This document shows positions 20,999 through 49,805 of a stretch of 64,000 bases of DNA, one piece after another. A model generated the notes under the pieces. That model made no database searches. It worked only from the letters and a program-made list of their open reading frames with translations, and was not told the origin of the DNA. Source of the DNA: Patescibacteria group bacterium (GTDB taxonomy: Bacteria; Patescibacteriota; Saccharimonadia; Saccharimonadales; UBA4665); the NCBI GenBank assembly GCA_030272735.1, contig JARXKL010000001.1, forward strand, positions 75,571 through 139,570, read 5' to 3'. The translations under genes were made by a program, and so were the position numbers. Within the stretch, counting starts at the first letter, position 1. Each line of letters starts with the position of its first letter.

Positions 20999-21175
20999 GC
21001 GTTGTTCTCCATGTTTTAGTTGAGTAAGACGATCGACCACTGTCCTACTTTCGTTGCCAAACAAAAACGCCTTTGCATCCAAAGACGTTCAAACTTACGA
21101 TAATCGTATGTAATAGTTTGTACCTTGGCGACGTTATCAAGTCTTTCGACCGTCGCTGTCTCTGGCAACTTGAGA
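20999..21175 (-). promoter_or_regulatory. rplJ 5' leader (L10-leader-like) containing an intrinsic terminator at 21057-21088
   Basis: About 175-nt untranslated leader. Minus strand: ACGUCUUUG-GAUG-CAAAGGCGU followed by UUUUUGUUU, upstream of the rplJ RBS. Confidence 0.55.
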
Positions 21176-21178
21176 TTT

Positions 21179-21207
21179 ATTATACTAGGTTACTGCTCGT
21201 CGTGCAA
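21179..21207 (-). promoter_or_regulatory. promoter of rplJL
   Basis: Minus strand: TTGCAC - 17 nt - TATAAT. Confidence 0.6.
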
Positions 21208-21224
21208 CAGGTCAGGAATAAATA

Positions 21225-21503
21225 TTATTCAGACTCCCTAAGGAGGATGGGCTCGTCTTCTGTTGAATGCTGGGGCACTAGCTGCAGCGTTGCTTCTGGA
21301 TTAGTACTTTGTTCGCTCACAGATACTTTTTCCAAAGCCGTGCGTACTATTCTTTGACCGGCACGGTACATCGCTAGTCTGCTCTTTTCTAATTGTGCAA
21401 TACTTTTTACTGGGTCTTCATTATATTCTTCTATATCAAAACCTCGCTGCCGCCTGCGAATATCATCTGCAGGAATTGAAGGATGCAATGATCGTTCGCT
21501 CAT
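21225..21503 (-). CDS. hypothetical 92-aa protein
   Basis: Start trimmed to MSERSLHP (ATG at 21503, RBS GGAAGGG 7 nt upstream). The longer ORF-track version overlaps the upstream small gene. Confidence 0.45.
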   Translation of the reverse strand: MSERSLHPSIPADDIRRRQRGFDIEEYNEDPVKSIAQLEKSRLAMYRAGQRIVRTALEKVSVSEQSTNPEATLQLVPQHSTEDEPILLRESE

Positions 21504-21507
21504 ATTG

Positions 21508-21690
21508 TTACCCTTCCTGATATCCTTCAACTGCTGCCATGAATGGCATATGGCAATTAAGTTCCGAGATTCTACTTCTGAAATTAGTTTGTTGCGCCTT
21601 ACGATTTTCTTCTTCTTGTTCGACTGTATTTCGAACTGCACATTCATCGAATGTGATTTGATCAATTTCTTCAAATTTTTTATGAACCAT
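21508..21690 (-). CDS. hypothetical 60-aa acidic protein
   Basis: Strong RBS (AAAGGAGAUAUAA-AUG). The stop lies 4 nt before the next start, suggesting a two-gene operon. Confidence 0.45.
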   Translation of the reverse strand: MVHKKFEEIDQITFDECAVRNTVEQEEENRKAQQTNFRSRISELNCHMPFMAAVEGYQEG

Positions 21691-21709
21691 TTATATCTCC
21701 TTTTTGTGA

Positions 21710-21775
21710 CAAATAAAAAGCTCCCGGTTTGGCGGGAGCTGCTTGTCGTTTTGTAAATTGCAAAAAGCTGCCCGC
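21710..21775 (-). promoter_or_regulatory. leader terminator with competing antiterminator upstream of the 60-aa gene
   Basis: Minus strand: AGCUCCCG-CCAAAC-CGGGAGCU-UUUUUAUUU (21710-21740). The upstream GCGGGCAGCU (21766-21775) can pair with AGCUCCCGC (21732-21740). Confidence 0.45.
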
Positions 21776-21828
21776 TACTGGGGGGTGAGAATCACGACCT
21801 TTACTGTGAGCATTTGTTGCATAAATGC

Positions 21829-21857
21829 ATGATCGCATACGCTCAGACAGCTGTCAA
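21829..21857 (-). promoter_or_regulatory. candidate promoter (extended -10) for the minus-strand small-gene operon
   Basis: Minus strand: TTGACA - 17 nt (of which the last three are TGC) - GATCAT. It sits back-to-back with the plus-strand promoter 16 bp away. Confidence 0.4.
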
Positions 21858-21873
21858 TATTCAAAAAAAGTTG

Positions 21874-21902
21874 TTGACATAGCTACGATATGGGTCTAAA
21901 GT
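21874..21902 (+). promoter_or_regulatory. candidate sigma70-type promoter for the 22063 leader
   Basis: TTGACA - 17 nt - TAAAGT. Confidence 0.5.
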
Positions 21903-21913
21903 TACCAATTGTG

Positions 21914-22051
21914 AAAACAAGCACTCAAAATATGCATAACACAAATTGCGCGGCCAAGCGTCTCTTTGTGATTTACGCGTAACCTGAGTCCTTGTTTTAG
22001 CAGAAATCAAATAATGTAAAACAGAGGACTCCACTACTGGGGTCCTTTTTT
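21914..22051 (+). promoter_or_regulatory. four-segment transcription attenuator (1:2 / 2:3 / 3:4)
   Basis: seg1 AAAACAAGCACUC (21914-21926), seg2 GAGUCCUUGUUUU (21986-21998), seg3 AAAACAGAGGACUC (22018-22031). Terminator GGACUCC-ACUACU-GGGGUCC-UUUUUU (22026-22051), 12 nt before the RBS/ATG. Confidence 0.55.
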
Positions 22052-22062
22052 ACGGAGAAACT

Positions 22063-22560
22063 ATGGCAGCAACAAGATTACAAAGCGGCGTAGAACATAT
22101 AACTGACAGACGTTTGGACGAGATGGACGATTTTATTGTTCCCGAATTGGCAAAAATTCATGTTGCCAGTATTTTTAATACCGAAAATAAAATCAAGAAG
22201 AATTTATCGTATAAACTAGGCCGTCAAACGGTAAGCTGTTATGTTACACCTGAGCTTATAGTCGCACCTGCAAATGTGGATTTACACGAATACGCATTAT
22301 TACTGGGGAAAGCTTCAGTAAAAGGTAAATACGTTATAGGCTTTACCATGGTTAATGAAGAAGCAGCAACGTACAGTGACGACGCTACTGCCCTAGCAGA
22401 GAAATATATTCAAAGAGACTTCTACAATGATAGCGGCTCAAATGTAGTTCTTTTCGAACAGCCAAGCGAAATCGATTCTGAAAGTCTACCAAGACTAGCA
22501 CGACTGCGTGAGCTGATTGCTGGGTTAGATGTTCCGTCTGCGGTTATCATAGCTCAGTAG
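22063..22560 (+). CDS. hypothetical 165-aa protein
   Basis: ORF with RBS GGAG 8 nt upstream. No recognisable family. Confidence 0.65.
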   Translation: MAATRLQSGVEHITDRRLDEMDDFIVPELAKIHVASIFNTENKIKKNLSYKLGRQTVSCYVTPELIVAPANVDLHEYALLLGKASVKGKYVIGFTMVNEEAATYSDDATALAEKYIQRDFYNDSGSNVVLFEQPSEIDSESLPRLARLRELIAGLDVPSAVIIAQ

Positions 22561-22567
22561 TTTACGG

Positions 22568-24949
22568 TTAGCCGCCCATTTGCTGCAGCTTGAACTGCGT
22601 GTATCGTTCTGCAGCTAAGCGTGTCAGTTCTTCGTCTTCGCCCGAGTTGACGAATTTCATGGCTTCTCCAAGCAGGGGGTGAACTTCTGAGAGTTTCTCG
22701 TGCATTTGGAGGACGAGTTTGCGGTATCCTGGGTGGCCCTGTGGGCTCGTGCGGAGTTCGTGTAAGTGGAAAGCTTCGCGGGCGTTATAAGTGACCTTCC
22801 AGCGCATACGGTGCCCGAGGAGCGTGGCATACTGGGCCTCGAGTCTATAGCCAGCCTGCTGCAAAATGCTATAGAGCTTGAGGCTGAGATCAAAACAAGC
22901 TTCGAATTGATCAGTCATACCGGCGGCCTCGACGAGTTGCGGTATTTCGTAGCCATAACGAGGCGTAAGTTGCTGCCAATTAAGATCATCAACCATACGA
23001 TGCCTCTGTAAATCCCGGAAAATACCATAATCACAAACCAGATCCCAGCTGTAATGGGCTTTTTCGATGGCACGACCAGGCCGGTGGCGACGATTGAGGC
23101 GTTCACCCATATAAGTGTTGAAAACTGTTTGTCGCTGAGAATAATCCCAATTACCAACTTCAGCCTGAAGTTCTTCTAGTGGCAAACTGCTGTGTTCATA
23201 AAGCATATCGGGCACGAGCAACATCTCGTTCTTAGGCCAATAATCTACCAGTGTGACAGGCTCCTGATTAGTTGTGGAATGTTTGTCACTTAAGTATTCT
23301 TTTGCTAAGTCTGCAACAGCGTGACGGGTGTTGGCGTTATACGCAATGGTTGCACCACCGCGCTCTGGTTTGTCGGCGCGCTCTAAGAACATCGGAACGA
23401 TTTTACGGGCCTGCTTTAGTAAGTCTTCGCCCGAAGCCTGTGCTTCTGGCAAGTCATCACCAAGTAAATGCGTAATGAGGCTCTCTAGGGCTTGGCCAGA
23501 TGCGAAGACGCCAACAGTCGATTTTGTGGCGACAGGTAGCACTGCTCGTACAGCGTCACAAGCTTGAGCGCGGGTGGCCCCTTTCCAGGCAATATCTCGT
23601 TCAGCTGCTGGCACTGACGAATGCGCCTGCACATACTCGGTTAAGGAGCGGACCATGGTCGAATACAACTCAAAGAGCTCATCCATAATCTGGTTGTATT
23701 GTGTTTGTATTTCTGGTTCAAAGTGCCCAGGAGTGTAATAACGGTACTTACCATTCGCATCTTTCTGATCAAAGTAGATGTAGCGCGTTGATTGTTCAAG
23801 GTAAGAAGCCATACGCCCCCACTCGAGCTTTTTGGTAAGCAGGTTCGATGCACCTTCGAATACAAAGTGCAACCCGCCCAGCTGCTGCACTGAATCATCG
23901 CCGTAGGCAGTAATGACTCTTTGGAGCAATTGCTCATCCTTGCCCAGCTTACCGGCAAATTCGTCGAGTAAAGTTATGCGCATGTCGTCCCCGCGGCGGC
24001 TGAGGCGTGCCATGGCAGCAGCAATAGTTATCGGACTTAATTTGTCACTAAAGGCGTAGACGTTACCGTCAACGCTGGTTACGGCTCCTGCCAAGTAGGC
24101 CTCGCCTGCCTTTGTAACAGTGATTCCGCTGTCAGTTTTATGCAGAAGCGGTTCATCGCTTTCTGCTATTTGGATTGGTTCGTCGTGGGGGAGGCTTACC
24201 GCTACTGTTGGATCCAGAGGCGGTTCATGGGGAGCTGGCGCAGGTAACGGGGCCGGCACTTGTAGTTGGGCAATAACTTCCTTGATTGGTGTTGCGGCGG
24301 CCAGCACCTTCGATGGTTCGCGGGTGCCGAGCTCGGCGGATACTAGTTTCCAGATTTCATCGGAGACTTGTTCTGGCGAACTAGTTGCATAAACTACTGG
24401 CAGGTTACGCTGTTTTGATTCCCACAAATAGCCAGAACGTACTCGTTCTAGAAATGCGTCATCGAGGTTGTCGAAGCGTTCACCGTTATAACGGTCTCCG
24501 AGTCGTTCTCTGAGTATAGCAACGGGGGCATCGAGCACAATACATAGGTCAGGCTCCATCCCACCGACTGCAAAATTTATAATACTGTTAATAGTATTAT
24601 AATCCGGCACATCACCGCGGCCATAATACTGAATAGCAAGGGTAGTTAAATAATTGCGATCTACGAGACAAATGACTCCGTTGGCTACGCTATCTTTAAT
24701 AACCCCAAGGCTTTGCGCACGCGCAGCATTGTAAAGCAGCACTTCTGTTCGTGTATTCATAGGATAACGAGGGTCTTGAGTAAGCTGTCGGATGGCGCGT
24801 GCCGTAAGATCACTCTGGCTGTCTGGTTCGCGGAGGGTCCGCACCGGCAAGCCTGCAGCTTGCAACCGTCGAGCTAACTCGAGTAATTGTGTAGTCTTCC
24901 CGACACCTTCAGGGCCTTCGAGCACGATGTATTTGCCGACATTATTCAT
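22568..24949 (-). CDS. fusion protein: thymidylate kinase (N-terminal) plus tandem-duplicated FAD-dependent thymidylate synthase ThyX (C-terminal)
   Basis: N-terminus YIVLEGPEGVGKTTQ...DRNYLTTLAIQY (Tmk). After a Pro-rich linker there are two ThyX-like halves: ARLSRRG...WGRMASYLEQSTRY and FRDLQRHRMVDDLNWQQLTPRY...NAREAFHLHELR. Confidence 0.85.
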   Translation of the reverse strand: MNNVGKYIVLEGPEGVGKTTQLLELARRLQAAGLPVRTLREPDSQSDLTARAIRQLTQDPRYPMNTRTEVLLYNAARAQSLGVIKDSVANGVICLVDRNYLTTLAIQYYGRGDVPDYNTINSIINFAVGGMEPDLCIVLDAPVAILRERLGDRYNGERFDNLDDAFLERVRSGYLWESKQRNLPVVYATSSPEQVSDEIWKLVSAELGTREPSKVLAAATPIKEVIAQLQVPAPLPAPAPHEPPLDPTVAVSLPHDEPIQIAESDEPLLHKTDSGITVTKAGEAYLAGAVTSVDGNVYAFSDKLSPITIAAAMARLSRRGDDMRITLLDEFAGKLGKDEQLLQRVITAYGDDSVQQLGGLHFVFEGASNLLTKKLEWGRMASYLEQSTRYIYFDQKDANGKYRYYTPGHFEPEIQTQYNQIMDELFELYSTMVRSLTEYVQAHSSVPAAERDIAWKGATRAQACDAVRAVLPVATKSTVGVFASGQALESLITHLLGDDLPEAQASGEDLLKQARKIVPMFLERADKPERGGATIAYNANTRHAVADLAKEYLSDKHSTTNQEPVTLVDYWPKNEMLLVPDMLYEHSSLPLEELQAEVGNWDYSQRQTVFNTYMGERLNRRHRPGRAIEKAHYSWDLVCDYGIFRDLQRHRMVDDLNWQQLTPRYGYEIPQLVEAAGMTDQFEACFDLSLKLYSILQQAGYRLEAQYATLLGHRMRWKVTYNAREAFHLHELRTSPQGHPGYRKLVLQMHEKLSEVHPLLGEAMKFVNSGEDEELTRLAAERYTQFKLQQMGG

Positions 24950-47470: not shown

Positions 47471-48564
47471 AAAATCGCTTCTTTCGTAATGTATGCTTTC
47501 AGTATAGTATAGAATTGCTCTAGAGAGGCAGCATCGACCCATTCATTCTCACCATGTAAGTCTCCACCAATAGGTCGAATCATCATCACAGGAATATTCT
47601 TTGCTGCAAAAAACCGAGCGTCCGAACTACCTCTTTCGCTGAGTTCGCCCAGTTCCTGACCTGTTATCTCTTGATAAGATGTTCTGAAGCGATCGATAGC
47701 GTTACTGTCATCCGCATTCGTGAAAGCCTCTGCCTGTCCTATAACTGTGACTGTAAGTCCATAACTCTCCGCCAACCTAGTAACTTCTTCCAACAATACT
47801 TTTGGTTCATCTTCAATTTGGAATCGGATATCAAGTGTTAGCTGCGCCATATGTGGTATCTGATTGATTGCCTCTCCACCCTTAAACTGCGTAATAACAT
47901 AGGTAGTATTGAATTCATCTTTATTCGGGTGTCGAGCAGTGATATCTGTGACAAAATTAGCTAAGGGGATGATTGGATTGTCTGCCTGTCGAGGACGAGA
48001 ACTATGCCCAGCCCTGCCAGATGACGCTATATTGAGTTGCATAACACCTTTTGAAGTGACGCAGGAGTGCGTGCTACTGCCGGCATCGGGGATAAAGCAT
48101 AGTTCGCACTCGTAATCTTTGACCAGCTCCCCTACTCCATAATAGCCACCAATTTCTTCATCACTGGTAAACATAAACCCCACGTCTAAGTTATGCAGCA
48201 AATTCTGTGAGTGTAATTCGCGCGCTAGGCAGAGATATATCGCCGCAGCAAAAAGCATGTCATACACACCTCGCCCATAGAGCTTGTTGCCGTCAATTCT
48301 CAGCGCAAACTGCTCTGTTTCTGCAGGTACTACATCCATATGAGCTTGTAACAAAACTTTGCTTTTGCGGACTGATTTTGTTCCACATACCAAATAGGGG
48401 TACTTATGATTCTTACCACTAACATATTTGATATCTAGAATGCCAATTTGTTTTTCTAGGTAATCAAATAGCAGCGTGGACTTTTGCTCTTCACCGGTTA
48501 CGGGCTCGAAAGCAACCAATATCGTTAGTTCCTTAATTAGTTCTTGCAAAATTCGCACTATCAA
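47467..48564 (-). CDS. M20 family metallopeptidase (ArgE/DapE-like)
   Basis: HMDVVPA and TSDEEIGG metal-binding motifs. Confidence 0.8.
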   Translation of the reverse strand: MIVRILQELIKELTILVAFEPVTGEEQKSTLLFDYLEKQIGILDIKYVSGKNHKYPYLVCGTKSVRKSKVLLQAHMDVVPAETEQFALRIDGNKLYGRGVYDMLFAAAIYLCLARELHSQNLLHNLDVGFMFTSDEEIGGYYGVGELVKDYECELCFIPDAGSSTHSCVTSKGVMQLNIASSGRAGHSSRPRQADNPIIPLANFVTDITARHPNKDEFNTTYVITQFKGGEAINQIPHMAQLTLDIRFQIEDEPKVLLEEVTRLAESYGLTVTVIGQAEAFTNADDSNAIDRFRTSYQEITGQELGELSERGSSDARFFAAKNIPVMMIRPIGGDLHGENEWVDAASLEQFYTILKAYITKEAIL

Positions 48565-49805
48565 TCGGCCTTTCGGCGCTTATGTAGAGCGTGAGCGAGC
48601 ATTCCGAGCATAACGTCCGTTTCATCGATACTAACGCATTCGTCTGTTATGCTTTGGCCGTACTTTAGTTCGCGAGATTTACCAGGAATCAGTTTTTGAT
48701 TACCCCCTAGCAAAAAACTTTCAATCATTACTCCCTTTATTGCTTGCTGGCCATCGTGTACCTGTCGTGCTACATCTGCAATAACTTTCTGTTGATTAGC
48801 TGCTTTTTTACGACTGTTACCATGAGACGCATCCACGATAATGGCTTGTAGCAACCCTTTCTGTCCTAGAACCTTTATAGCTCGGTTAATATGTTCGGCT
48901 TCGTAATTTGGACCGTCAGCATCTCCACGTAAAATGATGTGCGCACTATCATTGCCTGTTGTTTCGATCTGCTTAGTAGTGTTATTCATGCCTACTCCCA
49001 GGAAGGCGTGCGGTCCACGAGCAGTTACAACGGCTTCAGCGGCTGATAGAACGCTACGCTCACCTTCTGCTGTGTTTTTAAAGCCGACAGGCGAAGATGT
49101 GCCAGAACCGTATTCGCGCGCTTTCTGATCTGTTGTATTGCGCATGCCAATCGCGTCGTAAGCTACGAGTCCGTTTACGTACTGTGGTGTGAGTGCGTTT
49201 AAACGCTCCATTCCAGTAGGTACCCCGGTATTCACAATCTGGCTGGTAAGCATGCGAGTTGCTACTAATCCTAAATTGATATCGTCGGATTCGTCGAGTA
49301 AAGGGTCGTACACAAAACCCTTCCAGCCCAGCTCGGTTCGAGGTTTTTCCATGTAAGCGCGCATGATTATCTCAAGGTCATTGCCGTAAGATTCGCGCCA
49401 GGCAATGACGTGAGATGCATATTCTAGCGCTGCTTCAGGATCGTGTATTGAACAAGGTCCAACTATAACTACTAAGCGGTCGTCATCGCCATGCAAGATC
49501 GCTTCTATTGCTGCGCGTGCAATTCTTGTAGTCGCTGCACCTTCTTTAGTCACTGGAAGGGCTTCTGCTAAAGATTCAGGCGCAATCACGGTTTGCTTAC
49601 TTTCTATTCTAGTATCTATCAAATCTTGTGCGTGATCAGTATCAAGAGGCGCATAGCCTAATCGTTCACGGACGCCTGGTAAGCAATTCAGCCGCGCTTC
49701 ATGAGCTGCTTCCTCTACAACGTTCTCTACGACTAATAATTCATCGCGAACGCGAATCGATTCTTCTAGTATAGTGCTGTGATGTAACGCTGTTTCTGGG
49801 GACAT
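48561..49805 (-). CDS. aroG: 3-deoxy-7-phosphoheptulonate (DAHP) synthase, class I, with an N-terminal extension of about 55 aa
   Basis: GPCSIHD, EKPRTELGWKG and IVDASHGNS motifs. Confidence 0.9.
   Translation of the reverse strand: MSPETALHHSTILEESIRVRDELLVVENVVEEAAHEARLNCLPGVRERLGYAPLDTDHAQDLIDTRIESKQTVIAPESLAEALPVTKEGAATTRIARAAIEAILHGDDDRLVVIVGPCSIHDPEAALEYASHVIAWRESYGNDLEIIMRAYMEKPRTELGWKGFVYDPLLDESDDINLGLVATRMLTSQIVNTGVPTGMERLNALTPQYVNGLVAYDAIGMRNTTDQKAREYGSGTSSPVGFKNTAEGERSVLSAAEAVVTARGPHAFLGVGMNNTTKQIETTGNDSAHIILRGDADGPNYEAEHINRAIKVLGQKGLLQAIIVDASHGNSRKKAANQQKVIADVARQVHDGQQAIKGVMIESFLLGGNQKLIPGKSRELKYGQSITDECVSIDETDVMLGMLAHALHKRRKAD

Follow-up and report, generated by a model that had tools for sequence, protein, structure and literature searches.

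The 64-kb stretch of DNA analysed here (the window) derives from the Saccharibacteria (TM7) and contains a putative transcription attenuator, with a short open reading frame (ORF) at the predicted 5′ end of its transcript, situated immediately upstream of a gene coding for a 165-residue protein. Nearby are dnaX, rplL, rplJ, a tmk-thyX fusion and dcd. Loci of relatives, which were fetched via the thyX protein and assign the window to this group, keep the order dcd, tmk-thyX, gap, L10 leader, rplJ, rplL. These loci are denoted by L-numbers (e.g. L013) and that of the window by WIN. The attenuator is sited in the gap between tmk-thyX and rplJ, which is hypervariable, with a length of 271–4180 bp across ~100 loci. 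At most loci the gap carries a gene convergent on thyX, and these genes are mostly dissimilar to one another by BLASTP. An L10 leader (RF00557; Rfam, 57.3 bits) occupies positions 21053–21183 on the minus strand of the same intergenic island, ~700 nt from the attenuator.

The attenuator region is organized as a promoter, a mini-ORF enclosed within a long hairpin, an A-rich linker and an intrinsic terminator, followed by the 165-residue gene (Table 1). Inspection of the sequence places the promoter, the terminator, and the Shine-Dalgarno (SD) sequence and ATG of the gene where a first-pass annotation of this DNA had put them; the promoter scores 10/12 in a promoter scan. Segment 2 of the structure starts 3 nt past the stop codon of the mini-ORF. 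With an interval of only 11 nt between the U-tract and the ATG at 22063, there is no space for a separate promoter of the 165-residue gene. A terminator scan missed the clear terminator at 22023–22051 (plus strand), so that absence from that scan does not equal absence of a terminator; we suspect that the stem can run on into the T residues, leaving too few of them unpaired.

Table 1. Features of the attenuator region and of two further leaders found in the window. MFE, minimum free energy.
Feature	Position	Strand	Description	Basis
−35 box	21874–21879	+	TTGACA	Sequence; promoter scan
−10 box	21897–21902	+	TAAAGT; 17-nt spacer; 8 nt upstream of GUG	Sequence; promoter scan
Segment 1	21909–21927	+	5′ strand of closing helix; includes start codon	MFE structure
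Predicted leaderless mini-ORF	21911–21982	+	GUG start, 23 codons, VKTSTQNMHNTNCAAKRLFVIYA; stop UAA 21980–21982	Translation
Upper hairpin	21931–21981	+	Holds mini-ORF codons 8–23; sequence poorly conserved in the family	MFE structure
Segment 2	21985–22003	+	Partner of segment 1 (anti-antiterminator) or of segment 3 (antiterminator)	Fold; duplex energies
A-rich linker	22004–22017	+	AAAUCAAAUAAUGU	Sequence
Segment 3	22018–22033	+	Terminator 5′ arm and upstream A-run; complementary to segment 2 over 13 bp with one bulge	
Terminator	22026–22051	+	GGACTCC 22026–22032, loop ACTACT, GGGGTCC 22039–22045, T6 22046–22051	Sequence
Segment 4	22038–22051	+	Terminator 3′ arm and U6 tract	Sequence; MFE structure
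SD and 165-residue gene	22054–22560	+	GGAG 22054–22057; gene 22063–22560 (ATG 22063)	Sequence
Family C divergent attenuator	21714–21857	−	TTGACA 21857–21852; GATCAT 21834–21829; leaderless AUG 21822	
Family C ORF, segment 2 and terminator		−	ORF MQQMLTVKVVILTPQ, stop UAG 21777–21775; segment 2 GCGGGCAGCUUUUUGCA; terminator 21740–21719	Scan; sequence
YWF leader	49990–49832	−	TTGACA-17-TATATT; AUG 7 nt later; 25-codon ORF MSSNQQNCAYWFTPYYPSGYLAVSA; terminator	

The RNA corresponding to 21905–22056 on the plus strand folds at −50.9 kcal/mol, compared with −28.5±3.6 kcal/mol for 200 dinucleotide shuffles (RNAfold; z = −6.2), none of which folds as well. In the MFE structure, positions 21909–22051 form a 95-nt hairpin (1:2) followed by the intrinsic terminator (3:4), which spans 22023–22048. 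The hairpin is closed by a 17-bp helix (21909–21927 : 21985–22003) that includes the segments 1 and 2 of the first-pass annotation. RNAduplex gives almost equal energies for the 1:2 and 2:3 duplexes (−17.6 and −17.4 kcal/mol respectively), and each ranks first of 18 when compared against the partner segments of other loci. Read on the minus strand, the hairpin is almost as stable (−49.8 kcal/mol; z = −4.8); this orientation was discarded, as it is the plus strand that suits the promoter, the ORF, the U-tract and the G-U pairs.

A short ORF lying in a long paired hairpin that hides its start codon, and followed by a terminator, could also be read as a type I toxin-antitoxin mRNA, in which a small toxic peptide is encoded by a highly structured message. 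This is extremely unlikely here: the predicted peptide VKTSTQNMHNTNCAAKRLFVIYA is largely polar without a membrane-spanning stretch, no antisense promoter was found over the element in the promoter scan, and a toxin-antitoxin mRNA would explain neither the conserved 2:3 pairing described below nor the adjoining downstream gene.

The first-pass annotation had proposed a competition among helices 1:2, 2:3 and 3:4; this is present in the window, and the same architecture recurs with different sequences at 17 further Saccharibacteria loci, giving 18 members with WIN. The architecture was first read in L007, L008 and L013, and members were found by scanning for a promoter, a start codon 6–10 nt after the −10 box and a short ORF; L071 is an additional candidate that was left out of the 18 analysed. 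Members were sought by architecture because the leaders are not alignable by BLASTN, and BLASTN and nhmmer searches of the gap against relatives returned mainly the L10 leader and a minus-strand partner, with one weak attenuator match in L008. The full-length matches of a covariance model built from the single window sequence were limited to L037, L017 and L060; the model was not iterated because it also matched the antisense strand and the units of a separate group (family C; see below).

All 18 members are on the strand opposite thyX and share a layout of a TTGAC-type −35 box, −10 box, start codon, ORF, stop codon, segment 2, A-rich linker, terminator and gene. The −35 box is 16–18 nt upstream of the −10 box in every member, an intrinsic terminator is present in all of them, and the ATG of the gene is 0–35 nt past the U-tract in most. 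At three loci (L030, L037 and L060) the ATG directly follows the U-tract and the SD is carried by the 3′ arm of the terminator. Segment 2 often reads GUUGGAG and the terminator 5′ arm often reads ACUCCAA, to which it is complementary; the linkers of L007 and L008 are similar to that of the window, with a AAUCAAAUAA-like motif.

The sensor of the attenuator is most likely the leaderless 23-codon mini-ORF at the predicted 5′ end of the transcript. The first-pass annotation had noted a possible mini-ORF lacking an SD and starting at either a GTG or an ATG; the GTG is borne out, with a frame that is open in all copies and a near-fixed spacing from the promoter, and the ATG at 21890 was dropped as it overlaps the −10 box. 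The start-codon frame is open for 21–27 codons in all 18 members, the chance of a frame remaining open for at least 21 codons being ~0.32 per sequence; of the control frames, +1 stops immediately in 17/18 members and +2 has a stop before codon 21 in 10/18. The start codon is GUG in 15 members and AUG, at the same position, in three, and it is situated 8 nt past the −10 box in 12/18 members (6–10 nt overall). The stop codon is at most a few nucleotides before segment 2 across the members. As a control for bias, the loci were rescanned on promoter and terminator only, with ORFs ignored: every family-like unit so recovered has an ORF of 21–33 codons and none has a shorter one, and no start codon is present at that position in the L10 leaders of these loci. 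Since the GUG sits 8 nt past the −10 box (6–10 nt in the family), the transcript is predicted to be leaderless or nearly so, and transcription would begin at or 1–2 nt before the GUG at 21911. An SD would not fit between the −10 box and the start codon, and the ORF must therefore be leaderless if it is translated.

An alternative is that a trans-acting protein or small ligand binds the long hairpin, as in attenuators of the L10 leader, PyrR or TRAP type, and that the mini-ORF is incidental. The long hairpin is very stable, several members share a GC-rich apical stem, an L10 leader attenuator of the protein-sensed kind (RF00557) is located 700 nt away, and the mini-ORF contains no run of regulatory codons. 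We nonetheless regard this as unlikely, given the frame open in 18/18 members, the start at a fixed distance from the −10 box with switching between GUG and AUG, the stop codon abutting segment 2, and the lack of a start codon in the L10 leaders at the same loci. Moreover, the upper hairpin shows low sequence conservation, which is not what a binding site for a ligand or protein would show: mean column identity in the hairpin interior is 47%, and of the four invariant columns three are in the start-codon region (T1, T4, G5) and one is in the terminator U-tract. Rfam searches at gathering and permissive thresholds, which the first-pass annotation had suggested, assign the attenuator to no family. 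No leader family (RF00513, RF00506 and RF01859 among them) matches at the gathering threshold; the best permissive match is Phe_leader (RF01859) with 20.1 bits against a cutoff of 55, covering the terminator only, and a permissive Trp_leader match (RF00513; 18.9 bits against a cutoff of 41) is on the opposite strand. No Rfam riboswitch class matches and the hairpin interior has no conserved core, in agreement with the first reading that no known riboswitch class is recognisable.

Maintenance of the three helices was assessed by taking fixed windows for segments 1 and 2 and the terminator arms, and comparing the duplex that each forms with its own partner to those formed with partners from the other 17 loci. 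Matched and mismatched duplex energies were used because MAFFT with RNAalifold on 4–18 members misaligns helix 1:2 and yields only helix 2:3 or the terminator. Mean duplex energies with own partners and with those of other loci are −12.7 and −9.0 kcal/mol for 1:2, −13.7 and −8.9 kcal/mol for 2:3, and −14.7 and −8.1 kcal/mol for 3:4; for each helix, 0 of 20,000 permutations reach the matched mean. The 2:3 pairing is built from differing sequences, such as GAGUCC/GGACUC in the window, CCGGAGU/ACUCCGG in L060, CCCGGUUU/AAACCGGG in L013 and AACCAGGUUUAG/UUAAACCGGGUU in L072, and members with unusual sequences (WIN, L013, L072, L025 and L060) retain this complementarity. In a MAFFT column alignment of nine members the 2:3 helix is 82.5% paired, compared with 23–50% when it is slid.

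The retention of the antiterminator also bears on whether the element is simply an independent small gene, specifying a small RNA, a 23-residue protein or both, with the 165-residue gene expressed by unregulated leak-through only. The default product would be a stable ~140-nt RNA, most homologs of the 165-residue gene have a plain promoter and no leader, and small RNAs and trans-acting leader peptides derived from attenuators exist (rnTrpL and peTrpL; PMC6614838, PMC7298713). This interpretation is quite unlikely: the family preserves the 2:3 pairing with sequences that differ among members, no separate promoter would fit in front of the downstream gene, whose SD is inside the terminator at three loci, and the sequence of the peptide evolves fast.

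In the fast-evolving peptides Thr accounts for 19.4% of codons 2–13 compared with a background of 6.2%, with 42 in-frame Thr codons and 21 and 13 in the other two frames, and Asn accounts for 11.6%. This Thr- and Asn-rich first half points weakly to Thr-tRNA charging as the stalling signal, and a general translation-stress signal is equally possible. In the last eight codons Val (18%) and Phe (12%) exceed their backgrounds (7% and 4%), and Ile also clusters near the C-terminus. Both the N-terminal Thr bias and the C-terminal Phe/Val/Ile bias overlap RNA-pairing constraints.

The C-terminal bias could alternatively reflect nascent-peptide arrest, in which a small molecule or antibiotic would cause the ribosome to stall on a conserved x-F-V-(I/L) terminus; the resemblance to the IFVI arrest motif of ErmCL serves here as a lead only. 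In 17/18 members a Phe is 2–8 residues before the stop codon, and LFVI or FV[IL] is present in six (WIN, L060, L037, L043, L093 and L095), alongside the excess of Val and Phe in the last eight codons. However, L030 lacks the motif and L007 and L008 have none that is recognisable; in WIN, L060 and L037 the UUUGUG pairs inside the upper hairpin, so that RNA constraints could explain the FV motif; a ribosome at codon 21 does not cover segment 1; and the cargo proteins are not resistance genes, having no Pfam, PADLOC or PHROG match. We judge arrest to be very unlikely as the basis of the switch.

We favour instead a ribosome-mediated (leader-peptide) transcription attenuator with a leaderless leader ORF, with a probability of roughly 0.7. 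In favour of it, besides the structure, the family, the own-partner fit and the open frame, are the precedent of a leaderless Tyr-Trp-Phe leader in the same window, the like logic of the divergent family C (both below) and the leaderless leader peptides documented in other bacteria. Our confidence is high in the attenuator architecture and good in the ribosome as its sensor; we infer where transcription starts, that the ORF is translated and in which direction regulation runs. Three regulatory states are proposed by likeness to classical attenuators. With transcription beginning at or within 1–2 nt of the GUG, the 23-codon ORF would constitute the 5′ end of the RNA. If no ribosome is at this end when segment 2 emerges, segments 1 and 2 would pair, with the start codon held within segment 1, and the 3:4 terminator would then form and give a ~140-nt transcript. 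A ribosome that reaches the UAA stop codon, 3 nt before segment 2, would cover segment 2 with its footprint and again allow the terminator to form. A ribosome that is slow or stalled within the ORF would occupy segment 1 or keep it from segment 2, such that 2:3 could pair before segment 4 emerges and transcription would read through into the 165-residue gene. In folding of RNA truncated before segment 4, a ribosome placed at codon 4 gives a fraction of 0.75 for pairing of the terminator 5′ arm with the segment 2 zone, and one placed at the stop codon gives 0.12.

Several observations count against ribosome-mediated attenuation as set out here. The position of the transcription start is derived from promoter spacing only, and promoter-like matches are not enriched in the 2-kb stretch scanned around it (3 found, 3.8 expected); what supports the promoter is that relatives conserve it at fixed spacing, and not the scan. 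Leaderless initiation at a 5′-terminal GUG is poor in Escherichia coli; in Actinobacteria such a start works. The mini-ORF has no run of one regulatory codon, and its Thr enrichment may be due in part to the A/C richness of the 5′ strand in helix 1:2. Comparison of the codons of L079 and L084 by eye gives no clear third-position bias (~10, 6 and 10 differences at positions 1, 2 and 3). Pairing of 2:3 is weak in L017 and L073. The first-pass annotation had proposed covariation of the helices as a check; on this the column-based test is weaker than the own-partner fit, as covariation of 2:3 in the nine aligned members is no better than in shuffles, because the UUGGAG/CUCCAA core is conserved.

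Two further points of this kind concern the switch itself. In truncated RNA without a ribosome 2:3 often wins (fraction 0.64), and the default off state thus depends on folding order. Even with segment 1 masked, the terminator is still in the full-length MFE structure for 11–13 of the 18 members, WIN included, and equilibrium folding with ribosome masks alone does not flip the terminator. Since the terminator usually stays in place under such masking, the switch would have to be kinetic, and kinetic switching is normal for attenuators.

The 165-residue gene had been described as an orphan, a description that does not survive an exhaustive profile search, which gave 52 remote clusters. A word-indexed search with the protein matched only itself, and local profile searches identified homologs in seven other loci. 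The homologs adjoin thyX at the same position, as seen in four clusters with contigs that were examined (P0002, P0003, P0005 and P0006). Most of them have a plain promoter and SD and no leader, which makes the attenuator an optional module, and the attenuator also fronts unrelated genes. The protein has no Pfam, PADLOC, PHROG or Protein Data Bank (PDB) sequence match. A first AlphaFold2 model from five sequences was poor (mean predicted local distance difference test score, pLDDT, 44.8), and a second from 41 sequences has a pLDDT of 92.5 and an alpha/beta fold. This model has only a weak likeness to the AAA+ alpha/beta core (Foldseek template modelling score 0.4–0.56), and no canonical Walker A motif is seen in the sequence.

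The interval between tmk-thyX and the L10 leader and rplJ (window 21083–22567, with equivalents in L004–L103) is a hypervariable hotspot of mostly unrelated genes without assigned functions, and no tRNA, integrase or repeat signature was found in the gap among those looked for. The flanking tmk-thyX gene (22568–24949, minus strand) encodes a 793-residue fusion of an N-terminal thymidylate kinase and ThyX with two Thy1 stretches, and this fusion is kept throughout the fetched Saccharibacteria loci.

A scan of the whole window for the same layout gave two more units (Table 1). The first, designated family C, is transcribed divergently from the main attenuator, with −35 boxes 16 bp apart, and in the window is upstream of orphan genes coding for 60 and 92 residues. 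Its antiterminator GCGGGCAGCU competes with the terminator at 21740–21719. Thirty units share the family C layout of a start codon a few nucleotides past the −10 box, 14–18 codons and an early terminator, and show the same four-segment logic. Most of the peptides roughly follow M-[SC]-K-x-[FL]-[VI]-I-[EK]-V-V-[IL]-[IL]-[ST]-P; Ile and Val together make up 36% of codons in frame compared with a background of 14%, with almost none in the other frames, and these Ile/Val-rich peptides recall ilvL. The two leaders are arranged back to back, with start codons ~90–110 bp apart, in WIN, L030, L037, L043 and L060.

The second unit, the YWF leader, precedes a 3-deoxy-D-arabino-heptulosonate 7-phosphate (DAHP) synthase gene (48561–49805, minus strand; PF00793, E = 1.5e-63). 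Within its ORF GCGGUUAU is complementary to AUAACCGC in the terminator 5′ arm. The layout and a conserved xYWFT motif with the Tyr-Trp-Phe triplet are present in four of the five relatives examined (L108, L109, L111 and L112), in which the leaderless leader is situated upstream of aroG-(trpR)-trpC-trpB. The YWF leader is a textbook amino-acid attenuator in leaderless form, and it looks like one that responds to all three aromatic amino acids. In L109–L111 the gene order is rplM-rpsI-aroG-trpR-trpC-trpB, with DAHP synthase beside a Trp repressor homolog, indole-3-glycerol phosphate synthase and a TrpB-like PALP enzyme. Saccharibacteria are usually described as lacking amino-acid biosynthesis, and these aroG-trp genes are thus unexpected.

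Other short ORFs occur in the gap. One family, on the thyX strand, ends in ...LQGLCF(T/S)MVEA and is present in 15 loci (L024, L025, L039, L048, L052, L054, L063, L073, L084, L087, L092, L093, L099, L100 and L102); in it the terminator AGGCUUCAAC...GAAGCCU has a 5′ arm complementary to GUUGAAGCC, which specifies the codons V-E-A. There is also a fourth mini-ORF family, which ends in ...GS(K/M/D)ERG (L075, L078, L081 and L091), and L089 ends in ...ATELG. The VEA-ending and ERG-ending families look like more attenuators of the same class.

The main attenuator resembles E. coli trpL, thrL, ilvL and pheL in having a short leader ORF, mutually exclusive 1:2, 2:3 and 3:4 helices, an intrinsic terminator, and a stop codon placed so that a terminating ribosome blocks the antiterminator. 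It differs from the trpL type in that there is no SD and the GUG is at the predicted 5′ end, the whole ORF is inside the 1:2 hairpin with its start codon paired, no regulatory-codon run is obvious, and the cargo consists of fast-evolving proteins and not a biosynthetic operon. Compared with the YWF leader, it has the same promoter type, a start codon 7–8 nt past the −10 box, a leaderless ORF, a segment complementary to the terminator 5′ arm and a terminator directly upstream of the gene; the YWF leader, however, has obvious Tyr-Trp-Phe codons that match the pathway, segment 2 inside the ORF, and no long hairpin enclosing the ORF. The L10 leader, like the attenuator, is structured, lies close to its promoter and ends in a hairpin resembling a terminator; it has no start codon after the promoter and matches Rfam, which the attenuator does not. 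The L10 leader is sensed by the L10(L12)4 complex in Bacillus subtilis (PMC4538822), and is presumed to be sensed likewise here, not by a ribosome.

Leaderless leader peptides have been documented in Corynebacterium glutamicum (trp, ilvB and leu; PMC3890552) and Deinococcus deserti (PMC4007540), and mycobacteria have leaderless short ORFs with polycysteine tracts (bioRxiv 10.1101/834739). As in these leaders, the ORF described here would begin at the transcription start and its translation would govern the downstream genes. Unlike those of the Actinobacteria and Deinococcus, it belongs to a different phylum, within the Candidate Phyla Radiation, GUG is the usual start, and the leader is optional for the cargo homologs. 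Full-text searches for Saccharibacteria or Patescibacteria found no literature on attenuation or on leader peptides of the leaderless kind; ribosome-mediated attenuation, a known mechanism, has seemingly not been described before in these ultra-small bacteria.

A broader and doubtful possibility is that the leader acts as a cargo-independent sensor of ribosome progress, reading either host-supplied amino acids (Thr or branched-chain) through tRNA charging or a small molecule through a nascent arrest peptide of the FVI type. The leader and its divergent Ile/Val-rich twin would then jointly switch on the hypervariable, fast-evolving genes beside thyX when the epibiont is starved or attacked. If true, such a sensor would be a switch from nutrition to host interaction in bacteria regarded as having hardly any regulation.

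Saccharibacteria and other members of the Candidate Phyla Radiation have tiny genomes with few recognisable regulators and almost no experimental genetics. The window suggests that these bacteria use protein-free, ribosome-mediated attenuation in leaderless form, with at least three leaderless families: the main attenuator, its Ile/Val-rich divergent twin and the Tyr-Trp-Phe leader of the aroG-trp operon. Small ORFs of this kind, together with their terminators, offer specific targets for annotators of these genomes, and the amino acids that the leaders encode tell which nutrients the cell monitors. Identification of the signal read by the main attenuator would link nutritional or translational state to genes that are possibly relevant to life on a host.

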